Assembly (NCBI GenBank): GCA_046292385.1
Contig: JBKBRF010000019.1
Coordinates: forward strand, 1-64,000
Direction: 5' to 3'
From: Armatimonadota bacterium
Lineage (GTDB): Bacteria; Armatimonadota; SYMT01
DNA: 64,000 nucleotides
Shown here: in pieces, positions 35,535 to 40,495 of the stretch
Numbering within the stretch: the stretch's first letter is position 1
Layout: the number at the start of each line of letters is the position of its first letter
The notes under the pieces: generated by a model
What the model saw: only the letters and a program-made list of their open reading frames with translations
Database searches by the model: none
What the model was told of the DNA's origin: nothing
Program-made: the position numbers and the translations under genes

Positions 35535-35791
35535 CCGCAAAAATCCCCCTTGGCGAAATCATACCGTGGGCAAGACGGAAGAAGAAAGAAGGGAGAAGAA
35601 AGAACCGGTCATCGCCCGGCTTCTCCCGTCCACGACGCGCGCCGTCTCGCTCGATGTCGGAGCGCAGTGATGAGGCCTTACTGAATAGGTGAGTAGCCAG
35701 GCGGAGCATCCGAGGGGCCGCGAGGCATTGAAATACCTCGCTGAACGGCCTGCGGCCAAGCGTCCTCCGGACGCGCAAACCGGGCCTTCTC

Positions 35792-35841
35792 AGTCCGCGG
35801 AGGCGGACTTCGTGCCGTGGTTGCCGCGGTTTCAACCGCCC
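35792..35841. repeat. REP-like double-hairpin element
   Basis: AGTCCGC-GGAG-GCGGACT plus GCGGT-TTCA-ACCGC; single copy in the window. Confidence 0.45.
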
Positions 35842-35922
35842 GGTGGCTACAGGTAGCGGACTACCGTCCCCGGCTGCAGCTCTTCTTTCCTCTTTCCTCT
35901 CCCATCTACCAGTCTTGAACCG

Positions 35923-35951
35923 TTGACTGAGGGCCGCCTGGCTGCTACGAT
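35923..35951 (+). promoter_or_regulatory. Sigma70 promoter driving the mgtE leader
   Basis: TTGACT (35923-35928), 17 bp spacer, TACGAT (35946-35951). Confidence 0.75.
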
Positions 35952-35956
35952 TTGGA

Positions 35957-36229
35957 GGAGATTGGACAACTGCTGGCTTGCGGACCCGTCTGTCTGCCAA
36001 TTGGGGCGACAGTGGAAGCGGGGCTGCGGCGGGCTGATCGCGGCGCCGGTCGATCCGGCTTACCGTCCAGCCAGTGCCACCAGCGGTAAGGGATCCAACG
36101 TGGACGCTGAAAGTACCCACAGGTACTCCAACAACCGGCGCGTCAGCGGGACGAGCGGGGTAGTGGCAGCGCGGGCGTAACTTTACGCCCGTCTAGCGTT
36201 CACGCCCCGAGCTTCGGGGCTTTTTCTTT
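35957..36229 (+). ncRNA. Structured 5' leader of mgtE, candidate riboswitch/attenuator
   Basis: Nested helices 36033-36050/36134-36147, 36052-36065/36084-36095, 36112-36127 and 36171-36192, ending in an intrinsic terminator 80 bp before mgtE. Confidence 0.6.
36204..36229 (+). terminator. Intrinsic terminator within the mgtE leader
   Basis: GCCCCGA-GCT-TCGGGGC followed by TTTTTCTTT. Confidence 0.85.
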
Positions 36230-36308
36230 GTACGGCTCCATCTTCCGCTCCGCGCCAGGGTTCGGGCCCGCGGGCTCGAACCGGTAAGCCCGGATCGGGA
36301 GGTGAAGC

Positions 36309-37679
36309 ATGACCTTCGCGTTGCCTGCCGCGCCCTCCGTGGAGGTGCGTGAGCTGCTGGAGCGGGACGGCCCGCAGGCCGTGGCGCTGCAGCTTCTCAC
36401 GCTGCACCCGGTGGAGACGACGGAAGCGCTGGAGACGCTCGATCACGACGAGCGCTTCCGCGTAGTGAGCGCGCTCCCCATCAATATCGCGGCGCAGGTG
36501 CTGCTGAACGCGGACTCCGAGTTCCGCTCCGGCTTGCTGGAGCGGCTCTCCGCGGAGAGCCTGGCACAGATTCTCGATCGTCTCCCGATCGAGCACGCCA
36601 CGCAGATTCTGGAGCAGCTCGGCGACGACCGCCAGACGGAGGTGCTCGCCGCCGCTTCGCCGGAGGACGCCGCCCAGATGGAGGCGATCCGGCGGTGTCC
36701 GCCCTCCAGCATTGGCCGGCTGATGGTGCGCCAGGTCCCCCGCATCCGGGGCGGAATGACCGTGGCGGACACGTTCCGCTACCTGCGCCGTGTCTCCGCG
36801 GACCTGGAGACGATCAACAACCTGTACGTGCTCGACTCCACCGACCGCCTCGCCGGCGTGATCGCCCTGGGCGAGCTGGTGCTGGCCGACCCGCAGGCCC
36901 GGATCCAGGACCTGATGCAGTCCCGCGTGGTGATGGTGACCCCGGAGACCGACCGGGAAGTCGCCGCGAACCTGATCAGCCGCTACAACTTCCTGGCGCT
37001 CCCGGTGGTGGATGAGCAGAAGCGGCTGATGGGCGTGGTGACGGTCGACGACCTGGTCGACGTGCTGATCCAGGAAGGCACCGAGGACGTCCTCCGCCTC
37101 GGCGCGGTGGCGGGCGGGGACGACGCCGAGGGCCACACTTCCTACTGGGCGGGCCGCATCACCAGCGCGGTGAAGAAGCGGCTCGGCTGGCTGGTGCTGC
37201 TCTTCCTGGCCGGCTCCCTCACCAGCCAGGTGCTGCACATGTTCCAGGCGCCGCTGGAAAAGGTGGTCGCACTCTCCTTCTTCATCCCGCTGCTCATCGG
37301 CACCGGCGGCAACGCCGGCTCGCAGACCGTTATGACGGTGGTGCGCGGCCTCGCCCTGGCGGAGATCCGCCCGCGCGACGCGGGGCGAGTGCTGATGCGG
37401 GAAGCGCTCACCGGCCTGCTGCTGGGACTGATCCTCGGGATCCTCGCGTTCGCCGGCAGCGCGCTCTTTACCGGCGACGCCGGGATCGGGCTCGTCCTCG
37501 GCCTGGCGGTAGTGGCGGTCTGCGCCTGGAGCACCTGCGTCGGCGCCCTGGTCCCGATCACGGCGCACTTTCTGAAGGTCGACCCCACCGTCGCCAGCGC
37601 GCCGTTCATTAGCACGCTGGTCGACGCCACCGGGCTGATCCTCTACTTCATGATCGCGCGGCTGGTCCTGGGGATTTGA
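36309..37679 (+). CDS. mgtE: Magnesium transporter MgtE
   Basis: N-terminal helical domain, two CBS domains, IPLLIGTGGNAGSQ and DPTVASAPFISTLVD motifs. Confidence 0.95.
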   Translation: MTFALPAAPSVEVRELLERDGPQAVALQLLTLHPVETTEALETLDHDERFRVVSALPINIAAQVLLNADSEFRSGLLERLSAESLAQILDRLPIEHATQILEQLGDDRQTEVLAAASPEDAAQMEAIRRCPPSSIGRLMVRQVPRIRGGMTVADTFRYLRRVSADLETINNLYVLDSTDRLAGVIALGELVLADPQARIQDLMQSRVVMVTPETDREVAANLISRYNFLALPVVDEQKRLMGVVTVDDLVDVLIQEGTEDVLRLGAVAGGDDAEGHTSYWAGRITSAVKKRLGWLVLLFLAGSLTSQVLHMFQAPLEKVVALSFFIPLLIGTGGNAGSQTVMTVVRGLALAEIRPRDAGRVLMREALTGLLLGLILGILAFAGSALFTGDAGIGLVLGLAVVAVCAWSTCVGALVPITAHFLKVDPTVASAPFISTLVDATGLILYFMIARLVLGI

Positions 37680-37768
37680 TCGGAGCCGGAGGCCTTGCCC
37701 TCCGCCGGAAAGAACTGTGAGGGGAGCGAGGCGGTATCTCGCTCCCGTTTTCTTTGGCTGCGATCCAG

Positions 37769-40495
37769 ATGCGCGCGCTGCCCCCGCTGCTCCCACAAAC
37801 GAAGAGTGGCCTCTCCCCCTGGCTGCGGCGGCTCCGCTGGCTGGGCCCGCTGCTGCTGCTGGTGGGCGCTCTCGCCTGGCGGCCCGCGCTGGCCCTCTCC
37901 GTGCTGGCGATCGTCCTGGGAGGCGGCGGCCTGCTCTACTGGGTGACGGCGGTCGGCTGGGGCATGTTCCACCCGCGCGTCGTGCTGCGGGGGCGCGACG
38001 GGGCCCTGCGGTGGTCGTTCGGCCTCTCGCTCCTCGGCGGGTTGTTCATCACCGGCGGCCTGGAGGCGCTCCTCGCGCTGCGACCGGACTACCCGCTCTT
38101 CCCGTCGGCGCTAATCCCGCTGCTGGTGCTGCTGGCGGTGCCGCTCGGCTTCCTGCTGCTGCTGCCGCTCAGCTTCTCCGGCGCGGCGGTCGGCGCGTTC
38201 GCGTCCCGGCGCTCGCCGGAGGTGGAGACGGCGGCGCAGGCGGGGCCGACATGCTGGTGGGGAGCGGCGCTGCTCCTGCTCGCGTTCGCCAACCTGGCGA
38301 GCCGGATCCCCGGCGTCGCGCTGCGTCCGCTCCCGGCGCTCTTCCTGCTCGGAACGCCGCTGCTCGCGGCTCTCCTCTCCCGCGCCGCGCTGTGCCCGTC
38401 GCTGCGCCCGGAGCGGCTGACGCGGGGGGTCGTGCGGCTGCTCTCCCGACGCCTGGTCTGGCGGCCGAGCGTGCGCGGGCGCCCGCTGAAGCTCGACTTC
38501 CGCGGTGCCGCTCTCGGCCTCTGCGCCGCGCTCCTGGTCCTCGCCGCCCGCCCCTGGGTGCAGCCGCTCCAGGGGACCGTGTTGATCACGCTGATGAACT
38601 TCCGGAACGCGCTGGCGGTCTGGAACCAACGCGCCGACGCGGAGCTGCGCTTCGTGGAGACGGGGTCGCCCGCGCGAATCGTGCTGCTGGAGCTCGACGC
38701 GCCGCTCCGGCGCGAAGCGGTACAGACCGGCTCCGAGGCGGAGGTCCAGGCGCGGCTGATCCGAAAGCTCGCCGCCTGGAAGCCGCTGCGGGTGGTGCTG
38801 CCGCAGCCGCTGCTCCCTGGCGATCGGCCTTCCGACTGGTACTCGGTTCCCGGCGAGCCCCAGCCGGATGCAGCGGACGCTGAACGGAACGCGAAGCAGA
38901 TCGGAGTGCTCACCGGGGCGATGCGCGAGGCCGGCAACGTGGTCTTCGCCCGTCCCAGGCTGCCTTCCATGGTGTTGGAGGGACTTCCCGCCCAGGAGAT
39001 TCCGCAGGAGACGCTGGCCGCGGCGCGCGCTCTCGCTGCCGCCGCGGCCGCAGTCGGCGACACCGACCTGCCCACCGCCGGCACCGCGCGGCTCCCTGTG
39101 CTGCCGACCGCGTGGACCGAGAACCCACCGCTGCCGCTGCTGATGGCGGCCGCGGCGAAAGGGGAGGTGCTCCGGCCCGGAGAGCTTCGCGACGACGAAG
39201 TCTCGATCCTGGGACGTACCGTCGTCCCGGTAGAGGACCGGCAGCTCCTGATCGACTTCGTCTCCGGCGGCGGGGGAGGGGACTTCCCGCGGTTCACCTA
39301 CAGCAGCATCCTGCGGGGAGACTCGTTCTACACTACGGAGGCTGCAGCCGCCGAGCGAGCGCCGGCCGGCCGGTGGATCCGCCCGGCGGAGTACTTCCGC
39401 GACAAGATCGTGGTGCTCGACTCGCTCGCCCGCCGGCCGCGGGAGACCCCGCTGGGCCTGCTTCCGGCTTCCGAGGTGGCGGCCTATGCGGCGCAGGACC
39501 TCCTCGCGCCCGCGCCGCTCGCCCCGACCGCTCCCCTGGAGCTCGTCCTGATCGTCCTCTTCTTCGGCGTGCTGACTGGATACGTTTGCGCCGGGCGGGG
39601 CCCCCTCGACGCCGGGTGGAGGGTGATGTTCGCCATCGTGGTGATCGTCGGCGCCTCCGTCGTGCTCTACCTGGAGCGGGAGTGGCTCGATCCGGTCCTG
39701 CCGATTGTCACCGTGGCGCTGGCGGGATTCGTCGTGACCCAGCTCACCTTCGCGATGGAGAGCGACGAGCGGGAGCGCAACCGGCAGGTGCTGAGCCGCT
39801 TTCTGCCGCCGCAGCTCGTGGAGCGCCTGATCGACGATCCGGATGCCCGCCTCAAGCTCGGGGGTGCCCGGCAGCAGGTCTGCGTGCTCTTCGCGGACGT
39901 GCGGAACTTCACCCGGTTCGCGGAGCTAGCGAGTCCGGAGGCGGTGGTGGAGACGACGAACGCCTACCTCACCGCCATGACCGGCGCGCTCTTTGAACAC
40001 GGCGGCGTGCTGGACAAGTTCACCGGCGACGGCCTGATGGCGTGGTTCCCGGTGAGCGACCGGGACCACGACGTGCGGCAGGCGGTGCGCGCCGCGATCG
40101 CCATGGCCCGCGCCGCCACGGAGGTCGGGCGGGGGATGCTGGCGCAGGGGCGCCCGCCGCTGCAGATCGGCATCGGCATGCACTACGGCGAGGCGATCGT
40201 CGGCCTCGTCGGCAGCCCAAACCGGCCGGACTTCACCGCGCTCGGCCACACGGTGGTGGTGAGCCACCGGCTCCAGAGCCTCGCGGCCGGCGGAGAGGTG
40301 GTAGTCAGCCAGGATGTCGCCTCCGTCATGGGGGAAGACTTCCACGCCGAAGCGGGCGAGCCGGTGCAGGTAAAGGGGCTCTCCGCCCCGGTCCGGCCCT
40401 ACCGCCTCCGGCTCCAGCTCGACCTGGAGCCCGCCGGACTGGACGAGTGGGCCGTTCCCGAGCCGGCGCCGGCTGCCTCTTCGGAGAGCGGCTAA
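37769..40495 (+). CDS. Multi-TM CHASE2-type class III adenylate/guanylate cyclase
   Basis: VLFADVRNFT, LDKFTGDGLM, GIGMHYG and VKG motifs; CHASE2-like periplasmic part (YFRDKIVVL) followed by 3 TM helices. Confidence 0.85.
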   Translation: MRALPPLLPQTKSGLSPWLRRLRWLGPLLLLVGALAWRPALALSVLAIVLGGGGLLYWVTAVGWGMFHPRVVLRGRDGALRWSFGLSLLGGLFITGGLEALLALRPDYPLFPSALIPLLVLLAVPLGFLLLLPLSFSGAAVGAFASRRSPEVETAAQAGPTCWWGAALLLLAFANLASRIPGVALRPLPALFLLGTPLLAALLSRAALCPSLRPERLTRGVVRLLSRRLVWRPSVRGRPLKLDFRGAALGLCAALLVLAARPWVQPLQGTVLITLMNFRNALAVWNQRADAELRFVETGSPARIVLLELDAPLRREAVQTGSEAEVQARLIRKLAAWKPLRVVLPQPLLPGDRPSDWYSVPGEPQPDAADAERNAKQIGVLTGAMREAGNVVFARPRLPSMVLEGLPAQEIPQETLAAARALAAAAAAVGDTDLPTAGTARLPVLPTAWTENPPLPLLMAAAAKGEVLRPGELRDDEVSILGRTVVPVEDRQLLIDFVSGGGGGDFPRFTYSSILRGDSFYTTEAAAAERAPAGRWIRPAEYFRDKIVVLDSLARRPRETPLGLLPASEVAAYAAQDLLAPAPLAPTAPLELVLIVLFFGVLTGYVCAGRGPLDAGWRVMFAIVVIVGASVVLYLEREWLDPVLPIVTVALAGFVVTQLTFAMESDERERNRQVLSRFLPPQLVERLIDDPDARLKLGGARQQVCVLFADVRNFTRFAELASPEAVVETTNAYLTAMTGALFEHGGVLDKFTGDGLMAWFPVSDRDHDVRQAVRAAIAMARAATEVGRGMLAQGRPPLQIGIGMHYGEAIVGLVGSPNRPDFTALGHTVVVSHRLQSLAAGGEVVVSQDVASVMGEDFHAEAGEPVQVKGLSAPVRPYRLRLQLDLEPAGLDEWAVPEPAPAASSESG

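Follow-up and report, generated by a model that had tools for sequence, protein, structure and literature searches.

The mgtE leader and its surroundings

In a 64,000-nucleotide (nt) stretch of DNA from an Armatimonadota bacterium (assembly GCA_046292385.1, contig JBKBRF010000019.1, positions 1 to 64,000 of the forward strand; hereafter the window, to which coordinates refer), the magnesium channel gene mgtE is preceded by a structured leader, the features of which are collected in Table 1. The identity of the gene, as given in a preliminary description of this DNA, is borne out by the agreement of Pfam and NCBIfam TIGR00400. The same description had the leader begin at a near-consensus promoter and end in a strong intrinsic terminator 80 bp ahead of mgtE, and both were located. 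The promoter-like site matches the consensus at 9 of 12 positions, has a TG ahead of its -10 box and is the single such site in 35600-36500 (mean 0.0 in 50 shuffles), such that transcription would start near 35958; a promoter of the TTGAC...TA(A/G)GAT type lies at the equivalent position in relatives. From the end of the terminator to the ATG of mgtE at 36309 there are 80 nt, and terminator hairpins are predicted at the equivalent position in nine of the 10 leaders introduced below, with none evident in that of genome G003. None of 200 dinucleotide shuffles folds as stably as the leader, which is ~250 nt of structured RNA (z = −3.67), and no open reading frame overlapping it on either strand belongs to a Pfam family.

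Conservation and distribution

The leader is real, conserved and specific to one class of Armatimonadota. BLASTN locates it in two other members of the family to which this genome belongs, where it lies 5′ of mgtE orthologues at 77% and 74% identity, and a pattern of 23 letters from its core finds three metagenome loci, two of them mutually identical; both loci with sufficient sequence precede mgtE. A covariance model built from five sequences (R1) matches seven of seven genomes of the family. In G007, the only genome of a sister family, the leader (18.9 bits) is again 5′ of mgtE (57% identity). A second model (R2), confined to the 3′ domain and built from 10 sequences, matches all eight genomes of the class, one copy in each, and no others among 151 genomes of the phylum. 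In all, 10 distinct leaders are known, nine directly 5′ of mgtE, with orthologues at 57-77% identity, and one 5′ of an ATP-binding cassette (ABC) transporter. The conserved, cis-acting and terminator-bearing mgtE leader of the preliminary description is therefore upheld, being present in eight of eight class genomes and standing before mgtE in nine of 10 cases.

The exception is genome G004 (90% complete), in which this query retrieved no mgtE and the leader precedes a different operon (L036, G004:C102 1-5657, minus strand). The products of this operon are a permease in which two BPD_transp_1 units are fused and an ATPase carrying an AAA_assoc_C domain, and the gene for an OprB-like porin follows further 3′. 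The permease is of the nitrate/sulfonate/taurine type and is found within the class only in G004 and G007; the upstream region of its G007 orthologue holds no leader. Three 21-bit matches of R1 in other families (L033-L035) were judged false, there being no mgtE nearby, the alignments being poor and the matches being absent with R2. BLASTN matches outside the class were short chance matches, including one of 22 nt (L013) inside a coding region. A second, distant mgtE paralogue (~29-31% identity) occurs at G000:C9:64099-65400, outside the window, and also in G001, G005 and G006; since each genome has one match only, neither RNA model matches near it.

Directly 3′ of mgtE (37754-40495, + strand) is the gene for a protein of 913 amino acids with a CHASE2 sensor and adenylate/guanylate cyclase domains. 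Just 5′ of the leader promoter lies an intergenic repeat of ~85-90 nt (35760-35850, + strand), of which at least 40 copies, 78-97% identical, are found on other contigs of the same genome. RNA-library contigs match only 35800-35843 of the repeat, with unlike flanks; in appearance it resembles a repetitive extragenic palindrome (REP) or a miniature inverted-repeat transposable element (MITE), and there is no significant stability in its fold (z = −1.3).

Table 1. Features of the mgtE leader in window coordinates (SD, Shine-Dalgarno sequence; aa, amino acids)
Feature	Position	Strand	Details
Sigma-70-type promoter-like site	35923-35951	+	-35 TTGACT 35923-35928, 17-nt spacer, -10 TACGAT 35946-35951
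5′ structured domain	35962-36098	+	From RNAalifold and pair counts
P1	35962-35966 with 36094-36098	+	
P2	35969-35976 with 36080-36087	+	
P3	35981-35987 with 36020-36026	+	
P3a hairpin	35990-36012	+	Conserved loop AAUUGG 35999-36004
Variable P4 region	36027-36079	+	
SD-like stretch UAAGGGA	36087-36093	+	6-8 nt 5′ of GUG; internal loop between P2 and P1
P5 5′ strand CGUGGACGCU	36099-36108	+	Includes GUG start; pairs with 36195-36204
Predicted upstream reading frame	36100-36180	+	GUG start, 26 codons, UAA stop; product VDAESTHRYSNNRRVSGTSGVVAARA (P0002)
P5a hairpin AGUACC-CACA-GGUACU	36112-36127	+	Within reading frame, codons 5-9
Candidate antiterminator 5′ half GAGCGGGGUAGUG	36153-36165	+	Codons 18-22; can pair with CACGCCCCG 36201-36209
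P7 hairpin GCGGGCGUA/UACGCCCGU	36171-36192	+	Frame stop codon 36178-36180 at apex
P5 3′ strand AGCGUUCACG	36195-36204	+	Immediately abuts terminator
Intrinsic terminator	36204-36233	+	Stem-loop 36204-36220, U run 36221-36229, then conserved UUUGUAC 36227-36233
SD-hiding hairpin	36239-36308	+	C/U-rich anti-SD 36239-36252 with mgtE SD region 36291-36308 (GGGAGG 36297-36302)
mgtE, magnesium channel	36309-37679	+	456 aa; Pfam MgtE_N, CBS, MgtE; NCBIfam TIGR00400, 350.7 bits

Comparison with catalogued RNA families

The leader matches no catalogued RNA family. None of the covariance models of Rfam 15 finds a match in the whole window at its gathering score (44 bits in the case of the M-box, RF00380), nor is there any in the nine homologous loci. 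When 35850-36320 was scanned by E-value instead, to E = 10, only terminator-like chance matches were returned, the best at E = 0.28, and RF00380 was absent from them. The M-box is likewise found in none of the eight genomes of the class, and matches 10 of the 151 phylum genomes (nine above the cut-off); as positive control, it was matched in B. subtilis and L. lactis. The M-box, or any other Rfam family, was rejected as the identity of the leader for want of a match, in keeping with the earlier suggestion that it may be a new or very divergent class. The enterobacterial mgtA Mg2+-sensing leader RNA is itself an Rfam entry, and its model gave no match in the whole-library scans of the window and the nine homologous loci. 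Among the papers listed by literature searches, none was seen to describe an mgtE leader from Armatimonadota.

The 10 M-boxes of the phylum (L037-L046) lie in other Armatimonadota families. By Pfam, the genes 3′ of them code for Nramp proteins in six cases and for an MgtE_N/CBS protein, a CorA and an OprB porin in one case each, with no Pfam family in the last. The MgtE_N/CBS protein carries a PRC-barrel, and the M-box linked to CorA lies below the cut-off. A porin behind an M-box is unusual, and parallels the porin in the operon of G004.

Fold and covariation of the leader RNA

The fold of the leader is supported by covariation among its relatives. For five close sequences aligned with MAFFT, RNAalifold gives 69 pairs, 19 of which have compensatory changes; in this alignment, which is not fitted to a structure, 90.2% of the cells of the R1 structure are paired, as against 36-44% in slid controls. 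With nine sequences aligned to the model the value is 85.8%, again against 36-44% when slid and with none of 500 shuffles as high, and 33 of 64 pairs are changed on both sides, although this alignment leans towards the model because it is fitted to it. The covariation, which the preliminary description had suggested looking for in collected mgtE leaders, resides mostly in P2, P3, P6 and P7, with changes on both sides of five of the eight pairs in P2, five of seven in P3 and all six in P7 (helix 12). P1 and P5, on the other hand, are nearly invariant. P1 does not change in the five close sequences and is weak in three divergent ones, while P5 (helix 8) has 88.8% of its cells paired and shows one compensatory exchange, G-C to A-U, in G002. 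The stem of P5a is invariant in the five close sequences, its loop being variable, and is weak in four divergent sequences; at its position G007 has a different 6-bp hairpin. The G007 leader also has a short hairpin in place of P2-P4 and a largely different interior of the 3′ domain.

Conservation extends to unpaired positions, namely the AAUUGG loop, a junction GCGG and the sequence ACAACC. A pairing of the P3 loop AAUUGG with UCCAAC was considered and rejected by eye, changes in the loop being uncompensated.

Five helices had been drawn originally from the single sequence, and three of them, CUGUC/GACAG (P3a), AGUACC/GGUACU (P5a) and GCGGGCGUA/UACGCCCGU (P7), are kept in relatives. The two long-range ones, GCUGA..GCGCCGGU/ACCGGCGC.UCAGC and GAUCC..CUUACCG/CGGUAAG-GGAUC, are complementary in this window but not conserved, since 46.8% of their cells are paired compared with 36-47% in slid controls, a figure to be read with the poor alignment of the P4 region in mind. 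Similarly, a G-U closing helix with 35970-35981, in which the segment CGGGGU (36156-36161) was to be sequestered, is contradicted because 35970-35981 supplies the 5′ strand of P2, which covaries and in which it is paired with 36080-36087.

A small reading frame within the leader

The most strongly conserved stretch of the leader, an invariant core GAGGA-UCCAAC-GUGGAC, is better read as a putative ribosome-binding site, a spacer of 6-8 nt and a GUG start with the first codons of a frame 22-27 codons long. From the aligned GUG this frame is open for that length in all 10 leaders, the first stop codons in the other two frames being 15-89 and 2-28 codons away (the product in Table 1 is given as stored; GUG would be read as Met). 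The SD-like stretch contains GAGG in seven of the 10 leaders, GGAG in one and CAGG in one. In other words, a predicted SD, a start and a short frame lie within the leader and 5′ of the termination site in 10 of 10 cases, the arrangement that marks the MgtL/CorL type of leader. The frame stops 15-21 nt 5′ of the P5 3′ strand in nine of them.

The predicted peptides have an acidic start. Nine begin with MDxD, of which eight with MDAD or MDTD, and that of G004 with MEPH, such that aspartate or glutamate (D/E) is at residue 2 in all 10 and at residue 4 in nine. Counting proline as well (D/E/P), residues 2-7 hold two such residues in nine leaders and four in G007, the others being small (A, S, T, G); the G007 peptide, MDPDP... 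(VDPDPGSYPDQRDNQASPDPEERTVT, P0001), is also of 26 codons and has 12 D/E/P in 25 residues. Only two positions vary within the core, and each is the third of its codon (GCN, GAN); the serine of codon 6 is AGT in G002 and TCC in G001 and G003. Furthermore, the pooled G+C content of the frame falls from the third through the first to the second codon position (0.73, 0.63, 0.56), which is the order in mgtE itself (0.93, 0.72, 0.43). On these sequence features the small frame may be translated. Under relaxed criteria (SD, 15-35 codons, D/E at residue 2 and at least two D/E/P in residues 2-7), no comparable acidic frame turned up 5′ of mgtE in 23 loci from other Armatimonadota families, nor in 23 reverse-strand controls; under strict criteria there were none in the 23 loci and two in the 23 controls.

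Candidate antitermination and the region downstream of the terminator

The segment CGGGGU had also been proposed as an antiterminator, being complementary to GCCCCG of the terminator 5′ arm. This half of the proposal has fared better than the sequestering helix, in that in six of nine leaders a duplex scan ranks a segment 52-54 nt past the GUGGA core as one of the four partners that best suit the 5′ arm of the terminator; in the window this segment is GAGCGGGGUAGUG, of which CGGGGU is a part. G007 is one of these six even though both of its sequences differ, with 14 bp and −22.4 kcal/mol. In relatives, the segment equivalent to 36153-36165 forms the covarying hairpin P6. Minimum-energy folds of the unmasked RNA have P5-P7 and the terminator, with no antiterminator that is consistent across leaders.

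The behaviour of the RNA under a ribosome was modelled by masking parts of it in equilibrium folding. For G007 the terminator has a probability of 0.82 with no mask, 0.00 with codons 1-7 masked, 0.95 with a mid-frame mask and 0.98 with the mask at the stop. When the RNA is truncated before the 3′ arm, the leader of this window and that of G005 have the 5′ arm of the terminator paired with the 3′ half of the frame only under the early mask. G007 has lost P2-P4 and most of the nucleotide similarity within the frame, while keeping the SD, the GUG, a frame of 26 codons, P5, the terminator and, at the same offset, its own 14-bp antiterminator.

Beyond the terminator, the minimum-energy fold encloses the SD of mgtE in a stem in nine of nine leaders of family f1, with helix sequences that differ between genomes; the z-scores of this hairpin range from −1.3 to −5.8, and it is weaker in G007. 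The sequence UUUGUUUGUAC that follows the terminator stem (36227-36233) is kept in six of the 10 leaders, which is beyond the needs of a plain U run, and no pairing partner or function was found for it. Portions of the leader are covered, at 88-99% likeness, by contigs from metatranscriptome libraries (four runs in three studies), and three of them (X13, X18 and X20) span the termination site into mgtE, giving a weak hint of read-through transcripts. These contigs show neither ends nor strand and none covers 35874-35984, which makes them uninformative on the start of transcription; moreover, their evidence is weak because such libraries can hold DNA.

A proposed leader-peptide attenuator

The reading that is favoured, and to which about half of our confidence is given, is that of a leader-peptide attenuator similar to those of MgtL and CorL, with an additional structured RNA domain at its 5′ end. 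It takes as its basis the observed conservation, covariation, open frame, complementarities and association with the transporter gene; that the frame is translated, that Mg2+ is what is sensed and which way the switch works are presumed.

In such a mechanism, the leader would be transcribed from the promoter at 35923-35951 and the four-helix 5′ domain (P1-P4) would fold first. The SD and GUG would then open the 26-codon frame with its acidic start, the start region of which pairs, as P5, with the segment immediately 5′ of the terminator. With ample Mg2+, a ribosome would read the small frame through to its stop and cover or melt its 3′ half, such that the terminator forms and mgtE is off. An alternative off state would arise when no ribosome loads, P5-P7 fold and the terminator again forms. 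At low Mg2+, a ribosome destabilised or lagging on the acidic first codons would occupy the 5′ strand of P5, leaving GAGCGGGG... (36153-36165) free of ribosomes to pair with 36201-36209, that is, with the P5 3′ strand and the terminator 5′ arm. This pairing would block the terminator and let transcription enter mgtE, where the second conserved hairpin (36239-36308) would still hide the ribosome-binding site of the gene.

Relation to known regulatory systems

In attenuators of the trp type, the terminator forms if there is no ribosome or if the ribosome is at the stop, and the antiterminator forms if the ribosome is held early in the frame. It is this three-state logic that the G007 leader reproduces in silico. 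Unlike the trp-type leaders, those described here have no runs of regulatory codons for a single amino acid, and the signal proposed is the stability of the ribosome at low Mg2+, not the supply of charged tRNA.

Peptides that are N-terminally rich in D/E/P, such as MgtL (MEPDPT), are reported to give more translation abortion at low Mg2+, which small residues favour, where D/E/P-rich is defined within the six residues after Met (bioRxiv 10.1101/2021.02.02.429294). Translation of corL is reported to be inversely related to the expression of corA (PMC11552253). The present leader resembles MgtL/mgtA and CorL/corA of Escherichia coli and Salmonella in that a short frame with acidic residue(s) after Met lies in the leader of a Mg2+ importer and, as proposed here, in that alternative RNA pairings would couple the progress of the ribosome to premature termination, the gene being off at high Mg2+. 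In contrast, the gene is here mgtE, the phylum Armatimonadota, the start a GUG and the terminator intrinsic instead of Rho-dependent. Moreover, the MDAD/MDTD start of eight of the 10 peptides gives two D/E/P in the first six residues, less than in MgtL, and only the sister family has MDPDP; and a 135-nt covarying domain precedes the frame, with a separate hairpin hiding the SD of mgtE.

Two further systems combine some of these elements. In Mycobacterium tuberculosis, an Mbox controls a small upstream reading frame at pe20 (PMC12810186). There, as here, a structured domain stands directly before a conserved small frame and, in that account, translation of the small frame is linked to transcription termination; the pe20 domain is, however, a bona fide M-box and its termination Rho-dependent, whereas an unclassed domain would be the putative sensor in the present leader and the terminator is intrinsic. 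[quoted passage not shown] It is likewise an orphan, narrowly distributed and structured mgtE leader other than the M-box, and the accessible part of its description is without a terminator or a small frame, the two leaders being set apart by description only (PMC11109978). The M-box itself shares with the present leader the combination of a structured RNA and an intrinsic terminator before the gene of a Mg2+ transporter, presumably OFF at high Mg2+, but there is no similarity by covariance model, the helix layout is different and the present leader has a conserved reading frame.

Weighing the alternatives

A number of results weigh against the attenuator. With two D/E/P in residues 2-7, nine of the 10 peptides are far below MgtL in this respect, and open frames are in any case common in DNA of 65-69% G+C. 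Pairwise codon differences are 39 synonymous and 361 non-synonymous, frame +1 having 84 synonymous; BLOSUM scores average 1.96 in frame 0 and 1.71 in frame +1, and the entropies of the three codon positions are 13.5, 9.1 and 12.4. Neither the substitution counts nor the BLOSUM scores, as signatures of coding, tell one frame from the other. Some third positions within the frame are invariant because they lie in helices, and from the invariance of AGU and ACC at third positions it follows that a constraint at the level of the RNA overlaps the frame. In the C-terminal half of the frame, what is conserved is the pair of RNA hairpins P6 and P7 and not the peptide. With regard to switching, antiterminator duplexes of a leader with its own partner average −16.6 kcal/mol compared with −15.0 kcal/mol for foreign partners, a difference that is not significant (p = 0.078) and is driven by G007. 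In equilibrium folding the terminator is probable (0.64-0.99) in all mask states for eight of nine leaders, and the truncated model shows dependence on state in only two of nine, such that the three-state logic of the trp/MgtL kind is seen clearly in one leader and partly in two others, and is no more than putative for the remainder. Finally, the attenuator leaves idle a large covarying 5′ domain with conserved loops, which is aptamer-like.

The preliminary description had itself proposed a ligand-OFF riboswitch, which would take the form of a new, RNA-only class for Mg2+, another cation or a metabolite. P1-P7 would be its aptamer and the SD-like stretch and GUG mere junction nucleotides; the ligand would stabilise P5/P6, sequester GAGCGGGG and so let the terminator form. 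Part of this proposal has held, in that the leader is an uncatalogued, covarying, cis-acting RNA. Its large multi-helix fold, with the paired fractions and conserved unpaired positions given above, is what such a switch would show, as is the occurrence of one copy per genome ahead of a cation channel; the M-box, absent from the class, stands elsewhere in the phylum before Nramp-type, MgtE-type and CorA genes, and the weak coding statistics and the third codon positions held invariant by stems point the same way. However, although the covarying domain expected of riboswitches in general is present, a sensing domain common to all members is not, because the sister-family leader of G007 is without P2-P4 and largely different inside, yet keeps its SD, GUG, frame length, P5, antiterminator and terminator. 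The strongest conservation, moreover, coincides with translation signals and first codons, and the minimum-energy folds are terminator-on, with no competing structure, and no antiterminator partner consistent across leaders, unless part of the RNA is masked. With the upstream frame present in 10 of 10 leaders, direct ligand binding is for these reasons taken as possible and not as the leading explanation, and the RNA-only riboswitch as a tentative, minority reading. The two ideas could also be joined. P1-P4 (135 nt) might be a new cation-sensing aptamer that holds the SD of an MgtL-like peptide in the internal loop between P1 and P2, in which case RNA fold and ribosome would be two Mg2+ sensors in series on one terminator, and the SD hairpin a third checkpoint; this combination is considered unlikely.

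Three conserved elements that are idle in the other models, namely the loops of the 5′ domain, the UUUGUAC that follows the U run and the SD hairpin with its constitutive stability, would find a use if a trans-acting factor, either an RNA-binding protein or a small RNA, acted on the 5′ domain or on UUUGUUUGUAC to set the formation of the terminator or of the SD hairpin. No candidate gene for such a factor is linked to the leader, however, the neighbouring genes differ between loci and there is no Rfam match to catalogued protein-binding leaders, which makes a factor of this kind improbable. It is most improbable, finally, that the leader is an independent small RNA merely situated 5′ of mgtE, even though a strong promoter-like site and a terminator bracket a structured RNA of ~270 nt. 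A separate mgtE promoter past 36230, which the preliminary description had named as evidence against a switch, was searched for in the scan of 35600-36500, and no second promoter-like site was found between terminator and gene; a candidate within UUUGUAC...CCAU 3′ of the terminator was dismissed, its spacing of 22-23 nt being unsuitable by eye and the scan finding none. Furthermore, all 10 leaders stand directly 5′ of a transporter gene, the conserved anti-SD/SD hairpin extends the leader past the terminator, and the RNA-library contigs of the three studies cross the termination site into mgtE, weak as this evidence is for the reason given above.

Implications for the control of magnesium import

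Mg2+ import is known to be under the control of the M-box riboswitch, largely in Firmicutes, and of the MgtL and CorL leader peptides in enterobacteria. In one class of Armatimonadota there is no M-box in use and no leader recognisable as a copy of those in enterobacteria, but a conserved design of its own, in which an extensive RNA fold stands ahead of the gene together with a short frame of acidic start, an intrinsic terminator and a hairpin that hides the SD. If the RNA is the sensor, then this would be a new riboswitch class. If the combination of two sensors and an SD hairpin were true, the magnesium channel would be under a three-tier control of a kind as yet undescribed among transporters. 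Should the sensor be the small frame, as in the attenuator favoured here, then mgtE, and with it a distant phylum, would be added to the range of ribosome-based Mg2+ sensing.

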